Below are positions 6,801 through 34,312 of a stretch of 36,111 nucleotides of DNA, in pieces. Positions within the stretch are counted from its first letter, which is position 1. Each line of letters begins with the position of its first letter. Both the position numbers and the translations under genes were made by a program. Below the pieces are notes generated by a model. The model saw only the letters and a program-made list of their open reading frames with translations, ran no database searches and was not told where the DNA came from. Source of the DNA: Methanobacteriota archaeon (GTDB taxonomy: Archaea > Hydrothermarchaeota > Hydrothermarchaeia > Hydrothermarchaeales > BMS3B); contig JAADFX010000010.1 in assembly GCA_013152685.1 (NCBI GenBank), positions 1-36,111 of the forward strand. The letters are read 5' to 3'.

Positions 6801-9386
6801 GTGGCACTGGGCGTTATGCCGAGAATACCCGTGGAGGTACCTGGGAATTTGGAAAAGTTGCTTTCAAAAACAGATAAAAAAGAGCTCCTTGAAGATGTGT
6901 TCAATTCCATGGGGGAGGGCGTAGTTGTCATAGACTTGGACTACAACATAGTGGAGGCCAACCCCGCGGCACTGGAACTTTTCGGACGCACCAGGGAGGA
7001 GCTCATCGGCAGGAAGTGCTACGAGGTTATCCACGGGGAAGATGCCCCCTGCCGGGGGATTCTCTGCCCCCTGGCGGAGTCCCCGAAGCGCGGAAGGCTG
7101 AAGGGCATAATCCACGAGCATCTGAGGGGAAGCGGCGAGCGGTGGATTGCTGAAATCTCTGCCACGCCCATCAGGGACAAAAGCGGCAGGATAGTCGGGA
7201 TAGTTGAGATAAACAGGGACGTGACCAGGCAGAAGAAGTTTGAGAAGGAGATAAAGCACCTCAACAGGGTTCTCAGGGCGATAAATGAGGTGGGGAGCGT
7301 TATAACCAGGGAGAGGGACAGGGACTCCCTCTTCCAGTCGGTGTGCGAGATCCTCCAGCGGGTGAGGGGCTACAGGATGGTCTGGATAGGCGTGCCCAGG
7401 GAGGAGACGGGGGAGGTGGTGCCGGTGGCGAAGGCGGGCGTGGACGACGGCTACTTGGAGAGGGTTCGCATCACCTTTGACGATTCCGAGACGGGCATGG
7501 GTCCGACGGGCATGGCGATAAAGACCCGGAAGCCCCAGGTTGTGCGCGACATCTCCAGCGATGAGAACTATGCCCCCTGGCGGGAGGAGGCGATGAAGAG
7601 GGGCTACAGGTCCTCGGCGTCGGTGCCCATTGTGTGCGGCGACAGGGTTTATGGCACAATAAATGTGTACTCTGACTCCAGCGACGTCTTCACCGAGGAG
7701 GAGATGGAGCTCCTGATGCGGGTGGGGGAGGACCTGGCCTTCGCCCTCAGGGTTATCGAGGATGAGGAGGAGAAGCGGAGGGCTGAGCAGGCGGCAAAGA
7801 AGAGGGCGGAGCAGCACGCTGTTATTGCGAGGCTGGGAGAGCTCTTCATGAAGGGCGTGGGCGTGGACGCGCTTATGCAGGAGGCGGTGGAGCTGGTGGC
7901 AGAGGCGCTGGGTGCCGAGTTCTGCAAAATCCTGTGGCTGGAGGGCGAGAACCTCCGCCTCATCGCCGGCGTGGGCTGGCGCCCCGGAATGGTGGGCAGC
8001 GCCACCGTAAGCGCTGATACGGCATCCCAGGCGGGCTACACGCTGCGCACCAGGAAGCCTGTGCTGGTGGAGGACCTCCGGGAGGAGAGGCGATTCAGCC
8101 CGCCCCGCCTGCTGACGGAGCACGGTGTGGTGTCGGGGATAAGTGTGCCCATGATATACATGGACAAGGTCTACGGGGTTATGGGAGTCCACTCCAGGGA
8201 GCGGAGCAAGTTTACCCAGGCGGATGTGGACTTCCTCCAGTCGGTGGCAAACATAATCACCGCCGCCTTTGAGCGAATACGCACCGAGGAGATACTCAAG
8301 GAGTCCCAGAGGAAGCTGCGCGAAATCCTGAGGGAGATGGACAGCATTCTCCACACCATACCCGCGGCAGTCCTAACCACGGATGTGGACGGGACGATAA
8401 ACTACTTCAACCGCCGCGCCATGGAGTACCTGGAGAAGGGGGAGGGAGAGATTTTCACCACCCGGATTGGAGAGCACTTCCTGGAGCCGGGGGTTGAGGA
8501 GAGGGTGCTGGAGGTCCTCAGGGGCGAGGCGGAGGAGCCGGTCACCCTGGAGGCCACACTGCTCTCGGGCAGGGTTGTGCAGCTTTCAATTTCCTCCATG
8601 AAGGACGAGGAGGGAAGGATAGAGGGGGCTGTGGTTTCCTTCGTGGACATAACAAAACAGAAGGAGGCTCAGGAGAAGCTGAAGCGCGCCTATGAGGAGC
8701 TCAAGGAGATAGATGAGCTGAAGAGCAACATAATCGCCAATGTGAGCCACGAGCTGCGCACACCCATAACCATCGCCAAGGGCTTCATGGAGCTCGCCAT
8801 GGTGGAGGAGGATGAGGAGGACAGGAGGAATGAGCTGGAGTCGGCAATCAAGGCGCTGCGCAGGCTCAACGACATAGTGGAGGACCTGATAGAGATCGCA
8901 ACTGTGCAGCGCGGGGACCTCACCCTCCACAGGAAGCGCACCAGGGTGGAGGAGATAGTGAGGAGCGCTGTGGAGGAGAGGCGGGAGCTTGCGGCTGAGA
9001 AGGGAATAGAGATGGAGCTGGAGATTGACTACAGGGGCGAGGTGGTGGTTGACCCCTTCAAGCTGAAGAGGGCCCTCCTCAACCTGCTCGACAACGCCAT
9101 TAAGTTCAACAGGCCCGGCGGGAGGGTGAGGGTGACGCTGAAGGGAGAGAATGGGAGTGTGAGGATAAGCATCAGCGATACAGGCATTGGAATCCCGAAG
9201 GACAGGCTCAAGGACATCTTCAAGCCCCTCACCCAGCTGGACCCCTCCCCCACCAGGAGGTACGGTGGAACGGGCACAGGGCTGGCGGTGACAAAGCGGA
9301 TTATAGAGGCCCATGGGGGCAGGATATGGGTGGAGTCGGAGGTGGGCAGGGGGTCCACCTTCCACGTGAGCCTTCCCGTCGAGTGA
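6801..9386 (+). CDS. Cytoplasmic sensor histidine kinase, PAS-GAF-GAF-PAS-HisKA-HATPase
   Basis: H-box NVSHELRTP, N-box NLLDNAIKF, G1 DTGIGIP, G2 GGTGTGLA; no TM segments; start uncertain (6801 or 6816). Confidence 0.93.
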   Translation: MALGVMPRIPVEVPGNLEKLLSKTDKKELLEDVFNSMGEGVVVIDLDYNIVEANPAALELFGRTREELIGRKCYEVIHGEDAPCRGILCPLAESPKRGRLKGIIHEHLRGSGERWIAEISATPIRDKSGRIVGIVEINRDVTRQKKFEKEIKHLNRVLRAINEVGSVITRERDRDSLFQSVCEILQRVRGYRMVWIGVPREETGEVVPVAKAGVDDGYLERVRITFDDSETGMGPTGMAIKTRKPQVVRDISSDENYAPWREEAMKRGYRSSASVPIVCGDRVYGTINVYSDSSDVFTEEEMELLMRVGEDLAFALRVIEDEEEKRRAEQAAKKRAEQHAVIARLGELFMKGVGVDALMQEAVELVAEALGAEFCKILWLEGENLRLIAGVGWRPGMVGSATVSADTASQAGYTLRTRKPVLVEDLREERRFSPPRLLTEHGVVSGISVPMIYMDKVYGVMGVHSRERSKFTQADVDFLQSVANIITAAFERIRTEEILKESQRKLREILREMDSILHTIPAAVLTTDVDGTINYFNRRAMEYLEKGEGEIFTTRIGEHFLEPGVEERVLEVLRGEAEEPVTLEATLLSGRVVQLSISSMKDEEGRIEGAVVSFVDITKQKEAQEKLKRAYEELKEIDELKSNIIANVSHELRTPITIAKGFMELAMVEEDEEDRRNELESAIKALRRLNDIVEDLIEIATVQRGDLTLHRKRTRVEEIVRSAVEERRELAAEKGIEMELEIDYRGEVVVDPFKLKRALLNLLDNAIKFNRPGGRVRVTLKGENGSVRISISDTGIGIPKDRLKDIFKPLTQLDPSPTRRYGGTGTGLAVTKRIIEAHGGRIWVESEVGRGSTFHVSLPVE

Positions 9387-9417
9387 GGCAGGAGAATGGG
9401 GCAGGCAGGACAGAGAG

Positions 9418-9795
9418 GTGGTTGATGTGGCCAGGATAATGCTGGTGGATGATGAGCCGGAGATAAGGTACATAACCCGGAGGATGCTGGAGAGGGCGGG
9501 GCACAGCGTTGTGGAGGCGGGGGACGGGGAGGAGTGCCTCAGGAAGCTGAAAGAGGAGGAGGTGGACATTATTCTGCTTGATGTGATGATGCCCGGGATA
9601 AAGGGGTGGGAGGTGTGCCGCAGGATAAAGGCGGATGAGAGGACGCGGAGGATACCCGTGGTGATGTTTACTGTGAGAACCAGCGAGAGTGACGTGGAGG
9701 AGAGCAAGAAGTCGGGTGCGGATGCCCACATAAACAAGCCCTTCGACATGAAGGAGCTACTTGAGGTTATTGAGAGGGTGCTGGGCGATAGGTGA
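9418..9795 (+). CDS. Single-domain response regulator (CheY-like)
   Basis: LVDDE, LLDVMMPG phospho-Asp, VVMFT, NKPF. Confidence 0.93.
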   Translation: MVDVARIMLVDDEPEIRYITRRMLERAGHSVVEAGDGEECLRKLKEEEVDIILLDVMMPGIKGWEVCRRIKADERTRRIPVVMFTVRTSESDVEESKKSGADAHINKPFDMKELLEVIERVLGDR

Positions 9796-10287
9796 GCCCT
9801 CTGGGGTCTTCCAGCCCCTCACCACGGCGAAGTGCTCGTAGTAGTCCACCTCCACCCTCGCGAAGCGCTCAAACTCAGCCACGACCTCCTCTATGTCCAG
9901 CTCGTGCTCGCACCGGAAGTCGCGGAAGGCGAGGAGGGCGAGCTTTCCCCTGGGCTCGGCGGTAATCACCAGCCTCCTCGCAACGCGGAACATCTCTTTA
10001 ATCACGGCACGCCACTCCGGGATGTGCGCCAGCGCAGACCAGGTAGCGACAACGTCGAAGCTCCCGCTGCGGAAGGGGAGAAGGCGCGCGTCTCCAGCCA
10101 CAACCTCGCCTATTCTCGCAACCCTCGCCGCGTCTATGTCCAAGCAGACCACTCTGCCGCGAATCTTCCTGGCCAGGTACCCCGAGCCGGTGGCTACGTC
10201 GAGCACCCTGCCCGAGCAGAAGCTGGCGACTCTGCGCAGCACCCGCTCGCGGCTCTCAAGCTCTCCGAGAAGAGCAAGGAGGCTCAT
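9757..10287 (-). CDS. Class I SAM-dependent methyltransferase
   Basis: VLDVATGSG, CLDID, GDARLLPFRSGSFDVV. Start set at ATG 10287, where the GC-rich coding pattern begins about 24 nt after TTTAAA. The longer track ORF runs into the opposite-strand AT-rich gene. Confidence 0.85.
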   Translation of the reverse strand: MSLLALLGELESRERVLRRVASFCSGRVLDVATGSGYLARKIRGRVVCLDIDAARVARIGEVVAGDARLLPFRSGSFDVVATWSALAHIPEWRAVIKEMFRVARRLVITAEPRGKLALLAFRDFRCEHELDIEEVVAEFERFARVEVDYYEHFAVVRGWKTPEGSPIAQHPLNNLK

Positions 10288-10345
10288 GTCCTTAAAATTA
10301 GAATAATAAACTTTAAATAGAAGCACTCTAATTTTAGTTAGTGGG

Positions 10346-10768
10346 GTGTCTATTGTGAAAGAAATAAACCTTCCAAACGATACAAAGATAGTGGTGGCTG
10401 ACCATAAGGCTTGGTTACTGGAAAAAATTGTAAAAGATGAGGAAACAATAAAAATCATATTACAATGGTATAGCCAAAAACCTGAAAGAGAAAAAAGAGA
10501 TATATTGGCTGCCATTGGAGGTGCAATAGCAGGTTATGCGATTGACAAAAAGAGAATACGTGGAGCATCTATTGGTTCTACTATAGCAGTTGTGACCAGA
10601 ATGATTTATGACAGATTTGCAAAAGATGAAATCAAATTTACAGATGAACAGAAAAAATTGATTGAAAAATTAATAAACAGAAAACCAGGAGAGATAATTG
10701 AATTATCTGATGATGAATGCGATATTTTAATTGATTTGATCAAAAAAGTGCAAGATAAAAACAAATAG
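10346..10768 (+). CDS. AT-rich hypothetical protein with a glycine-zipper-like hydrophobic hairpin
   Basis: 140-aa ORF filling the low-GC patch; AAIGGAIAGYAI...GASIGSTIAVV; GTG 10355 after GGGGTG is an alternative start. Confidence 0.7.
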   Translation: MSIVKEINLPNDTKIVVADHKAWLLEKIVKDEETIKIILQWYSQKPEREKRDILAAIGGAIAGYAIDKKRIRGASIGSTIAVVTRMIYDRFAKDEIKFTDEQKKLIEKLINRKPGEIIELSDDECDILIDLIKKVQDKNK

Positions 10769-32484: not shown

Positions 32485-32532
32485 CTTATCCCTCTCCAGC
32501 GGACTAACTTAACCTTGTCAACTCTTTCGAAA

Positions 32533-32814
32533 CTACCTGGTGCTGATGTAGAGGAGCACCACCAGCGCTACCGTCTCAAAGGCCGACGCGAGCGCATGGT
32601 AGGGCTCGAAGGGGCACACGTCGTAGCCTGAGAAGAGGTAGAATATGCTGGGGCAGGACAGGAGGGCGTTTATGAAGAGCACCACCGCGAAGATAACCAG
32701 CCCCAGGGTAAAGGTGGAGCGCACCTTCCTGTAGTCCTGCAGGTAGAGGTAGATTAGGATTATCAGAAGCACCATGTTCAGAAAGTTTGAGACGGTGTAG
32801 ATGGCGTGGAACAT
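32533..32814 (-). CDS. Small 3-TM membrane protein
   Basis: Three hydrophobic segments; two Cys and a His in the loop between TM2 and TM3; GGAGGTGA upstream. Confidence 0.8.
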   Translation of the reverse strand: MFHAIYTVSNFLNMVLLIILIYLYLQDYRKVRSTFTLGLVIFAVVLFINALLSCPSIFYLFSGYDVCPFEPYHALASAFETVALVVLLYISTR

Positions 32815-32823
32815 ACCTTCAAC

Positions 32824-33123
32824 TCACCTCCCTTTCTTTAACTTGCTTTTCCCAATTTTGCTCCAGATTTCTTCAAGCACGTGGATATTCTCCTCCATCT
32901 GCGGTGACAGAAAGTAGAGCCTCCCATACCTCTCACCCCTGGCAACAATTATCCTGTTCTTCTGGAGAACGCGCAGGTGGTGGCGCACAGTCTTGTAGTC
33001 AACACCCAGCTCCCGGGTGAGCTGATTGGCGTTGTAGGGGCGCTGCTTAAGTAGCCTGAGTATCATTGCACGGGTCTCTCCTCCCCGTGTGCCGGCGAGA
33101 AGCCACCAGAGAAGCCTTTTCAT
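32824..33123 (-). CDS. Winged-HTH (ArsR-like) transcriptional regulator
   Basis: LWWLLAGTRGGETR, PYNANQL, DYKTVRHHL; BRE/TATA GAAAAAC-TTTTAAG about 24 nt upstream. Confidence 0.88.
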   Translation of the reverse strand: MKRLLWWLLAGTRGGETRAMILRLLKQRPYNANQLTRELGVDYKTVRHHLRVLQKNRIIVARGERYGRLYFLSPQMEENIHVLEEIWSKIGKSKLKKGR

Positions 33124-33180
33124 TGGATATCGAATGTTTTTTCAGGCTTAAAAGTTTTTCACCCCGTGGAGCGGCACACC

Positions 33181-33957
33181 CTAGGCGCTCCCCGCGGGAG
33201 TCAGGAGGGGGCAGGGATTCGGGATAGGAGGTGAAAACACATGAGGAAACCTGCCCCACAATCTATATATGAGCCTTCTAATATAAAAAGTTCTGCTAAA
33301 CCCATTTTTATCTAATTTAAAAAGTTTTTCAATCATTTTCTCCAATCCATCGCCCAGGGCACCGCCTCTATCCAGAACAACGGCGCATCCGGAGGATCTG
33401 ACCTCCTCGTACCCCGCTGCCGGTCCGGCCTCAGCCTCTGTTTTTATTATCACGTCCGCCCCGGACTCCAGGGAGGAGTACACGTGGGGAGGGTGCACAT
33501 ACTCGTGCACTGTGAAGAGGAGAACGCCGCCCATGCTCCTGGTGTAGGAGAACCTCTCCCGCAGGCGTTTTATCTGGCGCCTGTCTCCCACCCTGAAAAG
33601 AAAGGAGGAGAGGGAGTTTACAATTATGTTGCTGCTTAGCCTCTGCACGCCCGCGAGGAGGCTGTCCAGCCGCCGGCTGTGCAGCTGGCTTACCCGTCCC
33701 CTGAGCTCGGAGACCTTCCTGTAGTCCTCTATGCCCCAGCAGGTGCCGTCGATGTACAGCACCCGGGACAGCTCCTTCCCCAGTCCCAGGGACTCCTCTA
33801 TTTCCATGGGGCTGACCTCCGTGGTTATGTAGACGGCCTCCTCCCCCCTGCTCACCAGCTGCCCCAGGAGCCGGGCTGCAATTCTCCCCTTTCCCGTCCC
33901 CGGTGCCCCGGTGACCATTATCACGCACCCCTCAGACGGTGGCGGTCCTCCCCGCAT
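33181..33957 (-). CDS. Degenerate KaiC/RAD55-like ATPase; 3' end probably frameshifted, real end near 33333-33368
   Basis: VTGAPGTGKG, VYITTE, IIVNSLS, ADVIIK. The last ~50 codons cross AT-rich promoter-like DNA. Confidence 0.6.
   Translation of the reverse strand: MRGGPPPSEGCVIMVTGAPGTGKGRIAARLLGQLVSRGEEAVYITTEVSPMEIEESLGLGKELSRVLYIDGTCWGIEDYRKVSELRGRVSQLHSRRLDSLLAGVQRLSSNIIVNSLSSFLFRVGDRRQIKRLRERFSYTRSMGGVLLFTVHEYVHPPHVYSSLESGADVIIKTEAEAGPAAGYEEVRSSGCAVVLDRGGALGDGLEKMIEKLFKLDKNGFSRTFYIRRLIYRLWGRFPHVFSPPIPNPCPLLTPAGSA
33188..33259 (-). ncRNA. Candidate small RNA with an anti-SD/anti-start-codon loop
   Basis: Minus-strand TATA TTTTTATATT (33289-33280); stem GGGGCAGG/CCTGCCCC enclosing TTTCCTCATGTGTTTTCACCTCCTATCCCGAATC; second hairpin CTCCC-GCG-GGGAG. 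Confidence 0.5.
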
Positions 33958-34312
33958 TCCTCAGCACCCACTCGATGGTTTTGAAAAGCTGCATCTTCTT
34001 AACGGGCTTGGGCACGTGGGCGTCAGCCCCCTGCTCGAAGCTCCTCTCCCTGTCGCCCACCTCGTAGAGTATTGTGAGCATTATAACCGGCGTGGTGCTT
34101 CCCAGCCTTCTCATCTCCCTCAGCGTCTCCCAGCCGTCCAGCTCCGGCATCATGATGTCCAGCAGGATTAGGTCCGGGGAGACCTCCTCCAGCATCTCGA
34201 GGGCGCGCTTCCCGCTCTCCGCCAGGTACACCTCGTAGCCCCTCTCCTCCAGCATCCTCCCCAGAATCCGCAGAAACTCCGGGTCGTCGTCCACGCAGAG
34301 TATCTTCACCAC
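33932..34312 (-). CDS. Single-domain response regulator (CheY-like)
   Basis: CVDDD, LLDIMMP, VIMLT, PKPV. Confidence 0.92.
   Translation of the reverse strand: MVKILCVDDDPEFLRILGRMLEERGYEVYLAESGKRALEMLEEVSPDLILLDIMMPELDGWETLREMRRLGSTTPVIMLTILYEVGDRERSFEQGADAHVPKPVKKMQLFKTIEWVLRNAGRTATV

Follow-up and report, generated by a model that had tools for sequence, protein, structure and literature searches.

A candidate hairpin RNA perfectly complementary to the translation start region of a multihaem cytochrome gene in an uncultured archaeon

Masking of ribosome-binding sites (RBSs) by small RNAs has precedents in the archaeon Methanosarcina mazei: sRNA162 (accessible text of PMC3510493); and loop 2 of sRNA154, which acts on glnA2, together with sRNA41 (accessible text of PMC5867862). 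According to the same sources, these RNAs have genes of their own, mask the RBSs of mRNAs encoded elsewhere, and repress translation; PMC5867862 places the anti-RBS sequence of sRNA154 in a hairpin loop. A comparable hairpin locus occurs on the minus strand of the window considered here, the whole 36,111-nucleotide (nt) contig C10 (JAADFX010000010.1) of the Hydrothermarchaeota genome GCA_013152685.1. Its loop is the exact complement of the translation start region of a distant gene for a multihaem cytochrome. The favored reading, to which a probability of about 0.58 is assigned, is that the locus encodes a trans-acting antisense small RNA that masks the start site of the cytochrome mRNA; from sequence comparison, we infer the RNA as a discrete species, its pairing in vivo, and its repressive effect. 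Whereas pairing by the M. mazei RNAs is limited, here it covers 21–27 nt, is perfect, and includes the start codon. The host differs as well, belonging to an uncultured thermophile lineage, and the hairpin has no sequence or Rfam relationship to the M. mazei RNAs.

Bacterial systems offer partial parallels. Small RNAs of the RsaE/RoxS type carry C-rich hairpin loops that pair with GGAGG-type Shine-Dalgarno (SD) sequences and block initiation, using short UCCC seeds to reach many targets. The candidate RNA likewise presents a pyrimidine-rich loop on a stable stem to an SD sequence, but its antisense stretch is long and gene-specific. DapZ/MicL-type small RNAs come from mRNA 3' ends by means of an internal promoter. 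Here too, the putative promoter lies in the end of an upstream coding region, and the RNA would have the 3' end or terminator of the operon; unlike this locus, DapZ and MicL are bacterial and Hfq-dependent. Finally, the accessible text of PMC8835794 and PMC6456294 describes cGAMP (GEMM-Ib) riboswitches that control extracellular-electron-transfer genes in Geobacter. These also exert RNA-level control over extracellular cytochrome genes, although as cis-acting, ligand-sensing bacterial leaders.

The hairpin (Table 1) is preceded by a TATA box, TTTTTATATT (33289-33280), with 20 nt separating it from GTGGGGCAGG (33259-33250). Stem arms GGGGCAGG and CCTGCCCC form eight base pairs with no mismatch, and the enclosed 34-nt loop is the complement of AGGAGGUGA-AAACAC-AUG-AGG-AAA. 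In the ViennaRNA prediction, the 8 bp form and the loop is left essentially unpaired. A second hairpin, the GC-rich CUCCC-GCG-GGGAG (33200-33188), follows; both it and the GC-rich stretch 33207-33163 are unconserved and peculiar to the source genome (G000). A first-pass annotation, made from the sequence without database searches, had described this stem, loop, and second hairpin, and its coordinates are correct base for base on the minus strand. It had also equated the anti-SD sequence with the 3' tail of 16S rRNA. Indeed, UCACCUCCU equals the final nine nt of the 16S rRNA in the same-genus genome G001 (which ends in ...GGATCACCTCCT); no 16S rRNA is assembled in G000.

The evidence for a specific target comes from the source genome itself (1.8 Mb, 60% GC, 130 contigs). 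A search with the hairpin found one second match, 27 nt at 100% identity, on contig C121. With up to four substitutions allowed from the 21-nt core, the genome still holds just two sites: the hairpin itself and C121:9159. The exact complement of the loop at C121 is 26 nt, or 27 with the stem-closing G; the next-best exact complement in the genome is 14 nt, at a non-start site on contig C93. These 27 nt cover the SD sequence, spacer, ATG, and codons 2–3 of the gene at G000:C121:9174. The locus therefore displays what characterizes trans-encoded RBS masking: extended complementarity to the SD sequence and start codon of an mRNA from another locus. The first-pass annotation had looked closer to home, proposing as local targets the start of a DUF59 gene and the RBS of a gene with three transmembrane segments. 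Those sites have 8 nt in common with the loop complement, and the single distant target on C121 takes their place.

The C121 start region comprises a transcription factor B recognition element (BRE) and TATA box, GAAAAATATTTAAATAA; 21 nt; AGGAGGTGA; AAACAC; and ATG AGG AAA C. Assuming the same promoter geometry as at the hairpin, the cytochrome mRNA would start at or just ahead of the SD sequence, and complementarity would begin at about its first nucleotide. A seeded RNAduplex scan of about 6,800 genome sites ranked this region as the top non-self duplex at all three temperatures: −48.3 kcal/mol at 37 °C (next-best site, −42.9); −27.8 at 65 °C (−22.8); and −17.2 at 80 °C (−14.8).

The target is a gene of 225 codons. 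Its product has four CxxCH haem motifs, a hydrophobic, signal-like amino-terminal segment ending in AMA-K, and a Pfam match to Cytochrome_C7 (PF14522). Among solved chains it matches one, 8e5g_A (E = 1.5e-7, residues 4-205); according to the accessible text of a review, 8E5G is the extracellular cytochrome nanowire (ECN) of Archaeoglobus veneficus (PMC12954529). By sequence, then, the target is a secreted tetrahaem c-type cytochrome homologous to the A. veneficus nanowire subunit, and the predicted protein combines the features of an AvECN-type subunit: homology to the filament subunit, four haem motifs, and a secretion signal. It belongs to a cluster (C121, ~7660-10680) of three multihaem cytochrome genes, one larger and MtrC/MtrF-like and two tetrahaem paralogues, followed by an S26 signal-peptidase gene. 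The target is the second tetrahaem paralogue, directly ahead of the peptidase gene. Within the cluster, it alone has its own promoter and a start region matching the hairpin; the paralogue directly upstream has an unrelated start region.

Conservation was examined with a 301-nt BLAST query against 41 genomes. The element proved syntenic in three (G001, G002, and G004) of the four other same-genus genomes, at 78–80% identity over 118–133 nt. These relatives are Hydrothermarchaeota metagenome-assembled genomes, two of them named Candidatus Pyrohabitans (JdFR-16 and JdFR-17). Across the alignment of G000, G001, G002, and G004, 23 consecutive loop bases, UUCCUCAUGUGUUUUCACCUCCU, are invariant; no other invariant run exceeds 9 nt, and column identity averages 72%. 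The proposal of a hairpin displaying an invariant anti-SD and anti-AUG loop is borne out by this run. An exact-pattern scan of public metagenomes contributed two further variants, L038 and L043, used for stem and flanks only. A covariance model built from the six copies, run over 38 class genomes, recovered the same four genomes at 68–79 bits; among the other 34 it found no credible copy, and, target sites apart, nothing else in the 38 scored better than E = 0.09. Twelve weak matches (E = 0.09–0.65) were inspected and set aside: they were random hairpins or the starts of other genes.

The cytochrome start region is conserved along with the hairpin. In all three genomes that hold both loci, the loop matches the cytochrome start of its own genome: over 27 nt in G000, 21 in G001, and 25 in G002. 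G001 retains the 21-mer and the promoter, although its cytochrome protein is merely 51% identical to that of G000. Conversely, the orthologue in genus g3, 79–80% identical as protein in 3/3 genomes, has another spacer, starts with GTG, and lacks both a promoter of its own and the hairpin. As judged from these comparisons, the cytochrome start region tracks the RNA rather than the protein. The fifth member of the genus, G003, keeps syntenic KaiC-like and ArsR-family genes, but the element between them (~1430-1560, C9, L082) has decayed: the TATA box is lost, the anti-SD and anti-AUG sequences are mutated, and the KaiC-like open reading frame (ORF) reads through. The one substitution observed in the 21-mer is in the G003 cytochrome start region and is absent from a near-identical metagenome contig. 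This substitution is one observation, and no proof on its own.

The extent of conservation separates a dedicated antisense RNA from a general anti-SD RNA, that is, a mimic of the 16S rRNA 3' tail that would titrate many strongly SD-led mRNAs. The identity of UCACCUCCU with the 16S tail fits such a mimic, as does the full AGGAGGTGA at 43 ORF starts in G000 (counting ORFs of at least 50 codons). Invariance, however, runs 14 nt past the anti-SD sequence, into the spacer, AUG, and codon 2; one gene alone matches beyond 14 nt; and that gene's start region is co-conserved with the hairpin. General titration is therefore very improbable, the least probable of the alternatives considered here. The first-pass annotation had offered both a trans-acting repressor and an rRNA-tail mimic: a repressor best fits the sequence data, whereas conservation as far as AUG and codon 2 speaks against the mimic.

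The stem varies among the loci. It is perfect in G000 and G002; in L038, two pairs are changed on both sides (G-C to A-U, and C-G to U-A), with G001 showing the G.U intermediate in the minus sense. The stem table was computed by script (MAFFT shifted one 3' arm). In the formal count, made over six rows with G002 misaligned, 77.8% of cells are paired, as against at most 53.8% in shifted registers. Such pairing bears on the notion that the matching 21–27 bp are a DNA operator, bound at both loci by a transcription factor such as the adjacent ArsR-family regulator. The sequence does lie just downstream of a TATA box at both loci, and an ArsR-family gene does lie 85–120 nt downstream in G000, G003, and G004. 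A protein-binding site, however, has no need of arms that keep pairing through double changes; the 27-mer is nearly devoid of dyad symmetry, with only GTG-N4-CAC; the ArsR gene stands 1.5 kb off, behind a convergent gene, in G001 and G002; and G003 retains the ArsR gene but has lost the element. An operator appears improbable.

To orient transcription, a position weight matrix (PWM) was trained on 52 promoters of SD-bearing G000 genes, with the target gene left out. It had been given pre-selected TTTWWAWW sites, so its BRE half alone is independent. For reference, the training median is 17.9 bits and the 99th percentile of random 60-nt windows 13.9 bits; the minus-sense site of G000 falls between these values (Table 1), and those of the five other loci score 17.9–23.2 bits. 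In all six loci, the TATA box ends 22–25 nt ahead of the stem; archaeal TATA boxes lie at about −30 to −23. The minus-strand promoter motif thus stands where it had been predicted. A simple BRE/TATA regular expression was rejected as an orientation test, being weakly directional (134 vs 86 of 247 occurrences), and the PWM was used instead. Since the flanking genes are all on the minus strand, the minus-sense sequence would in any case be part of the KaiC-like mRNA, at its 3' end if nowhere else.

The opposite strand has claims of its own. Read in the plus sense, the locus would duplicate the cytochrome start region and use it to express a tiny ORF (MRKPAP...), or would serve as a same-sense decoy for whatever factor recognizes that region, with SD and AUG shown in the hairpin loop. 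The plus sense presents a perfect SD-N6-ATG; its fold has z = −2.22 versus shuffles; and in G004 and L043, where the minus-sense stem is down to 5 bp (−4 kcal/mol), the plus-sense fold is slightly better. The complement of the T-run places an A-run about 20–23 nt upstream of the SD sequence in four lineages, and a second conserved locus pair in the genus, described below, also has a common start region, with either orientation possible. Against these stand promoter, protein, and stem. Within 70 nt upstream of the SD sequence, G000 has no plus-sense TATA-like site (PWM −19.4 bits); the other loci score 2.8–12.0, under the random 99th percentile, at positions scattered from 2 to 54 nt. The ORF varies in length (7, 7, 7, 24, and about 25 codons), and its common residues all come from the core and stem. 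The two G.U pairs of the G001 stem become A.C mismatches in the plus sense. Moreover, a plus-sense transcript would be antisense to every neighbor gene, and a start site alone would not predict an invariant SD-to-AUG spacer. On balance, plus-strand function is unlikely.

The hairpin overlaps the 3' end of the KaiC-like ORF, which raises the question of protein-level conservation. The invariant core reads as FPHVFSPP in G000, FLMCFHLL in G001, and SSCVFTSF in G004. Three reading frames are thus in use across these genomes, and conservation of the core is not at the protein level. The gene itself is broken by stops or frameshifts in G001 and G002 (L021, L014), where the element is intact; it is intact in G000 and G003. 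Upstream of the TATA box, by contrast, the peptide pattern L-D-x-N-x-hydrophobic...Y is kept even in G003, with different, GC-rich codons, and the small-RNA promoter therefore probably lies within genuine KaiC-like coding sequence. The suggestion that the hairpin is hidden under a spurious ORF tail accordingly holds for the core, read in three frames, but not for the ORF up to about the TATA box, which looks truly coding.

In five of six loci, a run of five or six T residues lies 3–8 nt past the stem. The exception is G000: here, 45 nt of GC-rich sequence are followed by TTTT (33153-33150) inside the ArsR-gene promoter, the first T-run past the hairpin. Such an arrangement might be taken for the mere 3' end or terminator of the KaiC-like operon, with no regulatory role and with the cytochrome match an evolutionary leftover. 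The position at the end of a string of minus-strand genes fits, as does the oligo-T after the hairpin in relatives; the element can also be lost, having decayed in G003, as have the stems of G004 and L043. Archaeal termination, though, requires oligo-T only. A terminator would leave unexplained why 23 of the 34 loop bases are invariant, why the hairpin has its own promoter motif, and why it persists beside a broken KaiC-like gene; this explanation is quite improbable.

A masking RNA would operate as follows. The gene would occupy the minus strand from 33297 to 33208, perhaps to about 33150 in G000. Transcription would proceed from the BRE and TATA box inside the KaiC-like ORF 3' end; the RNA may also be freed from the longer KaiC-like mRNA, and in relatives the oligo-T would terminate it after the stem. 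The 8-bp GC stem would then expose the open loop, which would form a 26–27-bp duplex with the 5' end of the cytochrome mRNA: the 9-nt SD sequence, 6-nt spacer, AUG, and codons 2–3. This duplex would block 30S binding and hence initiation, and possibly expose the paired RNAs to RNase. The predicted outcome is that less filament subunit is made.

The match between the two loci stops sharply at the stem arms, which suggests that the RNA gene originated by inverted duplication of the target start region. Some plant microRNA genes were born by inverted duplication of their targets. There too, the part of the RNA that pairs exactly reproduces a target segment in inverted orientation; domain of life, machinery, and length all differ, and the analogy concerns origin only.

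Several observations weigh against a masking RNA, among them the reduced stems of G004 and L043 already mentioned. A search of sequencing runs for the locus listed no RNA run; three runs, apparently of DNA, were listed, and two of these contain part of the sequence. A 103-nt minus-sense RNA folds at −35.9 kcal/mol, with z = 0.10 versus shuffles; given this value and that of the plus sense, folding on its own proves nothing, and the significance of the hairpin comes from comparison with other sequences (the invariant loop run and the single exact partner) rather than from folding energy. Both double changes in the stem come from one sequence, L038. In the six-row count with G002 misaligned, 118 of 500 shuffles had at least as many doubly changed pairs, and 93 of 500 attained the observed covariation score. 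The helix is plausible without being statistically established; of the conservation that the first-pass annotation had proposed to look for, the invariant loop is there, whereas stem covariation is not significant. Core identity in L038 and L043 is by construction, as these loci were core-selected. The transcript end is undefined in G000, this genome being without an oligo-T run after the stem.

On the target side, the duplex-energy margin over off-target sites is small, because a loop rich in U and C pairs loosely with the numerous GAGG-rich segments of coding sequence; exact repeats of 18–20 nt are also frequent in G000 coding regions. G004 has the hairpin, and its assembly (93% complete) holds only cytochrome paralogues with other start regions. 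Among the genomes compared, no compensatory loop-target change specific to one lineage was seen. Finally, an identical 20-nt start region (SD, spacer, and ATG-AGG) occurs in unrelated bacteria, with Oerskovia accounting for six of 12 genome matches and such bacteria for six of 14 metagenome matches. The sequence can thus arise for no other reason than that it makes a good start site, apparently by convergence on a strong one. The Oerskovia loci are L026, L027, L031, and L033-L035, and the metagenome loci L039, L040, L044, L047, L048, and L050; the translated flanks of some metagenome copies look pilin-like by eye.

To our knowledge, targets are known for very few archaeal small RNAs, and no mechanism has been established for control of the costly production of extracellular cytochrome filaments in archaea. 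A full-text literature search, assessed by title and abstract, found no small RNA described from Hydrothermarchaeota. The accessible text of a 2026 review calls the physiological roles of extracellular cytochrome filaments an outstanding challenge (PMC12954529). This locus offers a concrete RNA-target pair: an RNA of 55–100 nt and a 27-nt site. If the masking RNA is real, it would mean that a subseafloor archaeon controls a nanowire subunit post-transcriptionally, and it would also exemplify a trans-acting prokaryotic RNA with microRNA-like perfect pairing. What would be new relative to known archaeal RBS-masking small RNAs is the length and perfection of pairing, the inclusion of the start codon, and the cytochrome target.

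All SD-bearing G000 starts were screened against the rest of the genome for exact matches of 22 nt or longer. With paralogues and repeats set aside, this gave one other isolated pair whose start site is plausibly genuine. The leader and SD sequence of a molybdopterin-oxidoreductase gene (PF04879; C2, ~7640, minus strand, L115) have 23 nt in common with C79:2299-2420 (L114), an intergenic, hairpin-rich locus with a 12-bp hairpin and four GGAGG/CCUCC motifs. Each of the four other genomes of the genus (G001-G004) has both loci, with an exact match of 24–26 nt between them. The conserved bases at C79 are read in different frames in different genomes, and so are not protein-coding. A promoter scan of the pair found no conserved canonical promoter on either strand. 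This pair could point to a class of such RNAs, or equally to shared start regions with another purpose. That the genus uses a class of long, perfect trans-antisense RNAs born by inverted duplication, with the C79 pair as second member, as an RNA control layer over respiratory and extracellular-electron-transfer genes, is a speculative extension and rather doubtful at present; in that reading, long perfect pairing could be an adaptation, since short seeds would fail at 60–80 °C.

Table 1. Coordinates of the candidate small-RNA gene and adjoining features in the window
Feature	Position	Strand	Basis or remark
BRE/TATA promoter of candidate small RNA, AGCAGAAC-TTTTTATATT	33280..33297	-	PWM 16.0 bits in G000; motif match
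Predicted transcription start	33256..33259	-	Inferred from 22–25 nt TATA-stem distance (6/6 loci) and archaeal promoter geometry
5' stem arm, GGGGCAGG	33250..33257	-	Sequence, fold, stem table
34-nt pyrimidine-rich loop with anti-SD, anti-spacer, anti-AUG	33216..33249	-	Sequence UUUCCUCAUGUGUUUUCACCUCCUAUCCCGAAUC, fold
27 nt exactly complementary to cytochrome translation start region, G000:C121:9174	33224..33250	-	Genome search
3' stem arm, CCTGCCCC	33208..33215	-	Sequence, stem table
G000-specific GC-rich tail with extra hairpin(s)	33163..33207	-	Sits where relatives have T5-T6 run after stem
Second conserved AT-rich block, BRE/TATA-like, GAAAAACTTTTTAAATTAGATAAAAAT	33304..33330	-	Inside KaiC-like ORF 3' end; simple BRE/TATA pattern match
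KaiC-like ATPase ORF	33181..33957	-	PF06745, residues 9-60; 3' end overlaps promoter and hairpin
ArsR-family gene promoter, BRE/TATA-like, GAAAAACTTTTAAGCC	33145..33160	-	Conserved in G001, G002, G003, G004
ArsR-family helix-turn-helix regulator gene	32824..33123	-	PF01022, E = 5.9e-11; next gene downstream, same strand

The gene order along the minus strand is HypB-like GTPase, response-regulator receiver, KaiC-like ATPase, ArsR-family regulator, small membrane protein, PCYCGC-motif protein, and thioredoxin-like protein. The second AT-rich block in Table 1 is near-invariant among G000, G001, G002, and G004. In G001 and G002 (L021, L014), a convergent gene of ~440 codons is inserted between the hairpin and the ArsR gene, and the hairpin unit therefore stands alone there with its own T6 run. 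The inserted gene encodes a signal peptide, a carboxyl-terminal Pro/Thr-rich linker, and a hydrophobic tail resembling an archaeal sorting signal.

Known RNA families were also sought. Rfam gave no matches in the entire window at gathering thresholds, and just three chance long non-coding RNA matches in 32900-33600 at the E-value threshold; a tRNA/tmRNA search over 32500-34000 found none. A C/D box small RNA was considered and ruled out, the hairpin being without conserved C (RUGAUGA) and D (CUGA) boxes: by eye, the C box is absent from all six hairpin sequences, and CUGA occurs solely in the G000-specific tail.

Three further hairpins or matches deserve mention. The first is a look-alike hairpin in another family of the same order (G029:C201:437-481; L020/L057), which reads GGGGCAGG...CCCGCCCC followed by T7, with a variant anti-start sequence in the loop and a covariance-model E of 0.11. 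This genome, 70% complete, yielded neither a matching target nor a cytochrome homologue, and membership of the family is unproven. The second is a non-coding segment upstream of a RAMP-like ORF (C93:17029-17095), which has 14 nt (GGGATAGGAGGTGA) in common with the plus-sense hairpin loop; the match takes in the G000-specific part of the loop, and C93 is the second-best duplex partner. The third is a repeated short hairpin, ATAGGAACC-N7-GGTTCCTAT with GGAGGT ahead, found at C79:2306-2331 and on the minus strand of C88 (~15083 in reverse-complement coordinates). G000 has two copies, and each relative has several (many in G001 and G002), at 87–94% identity.

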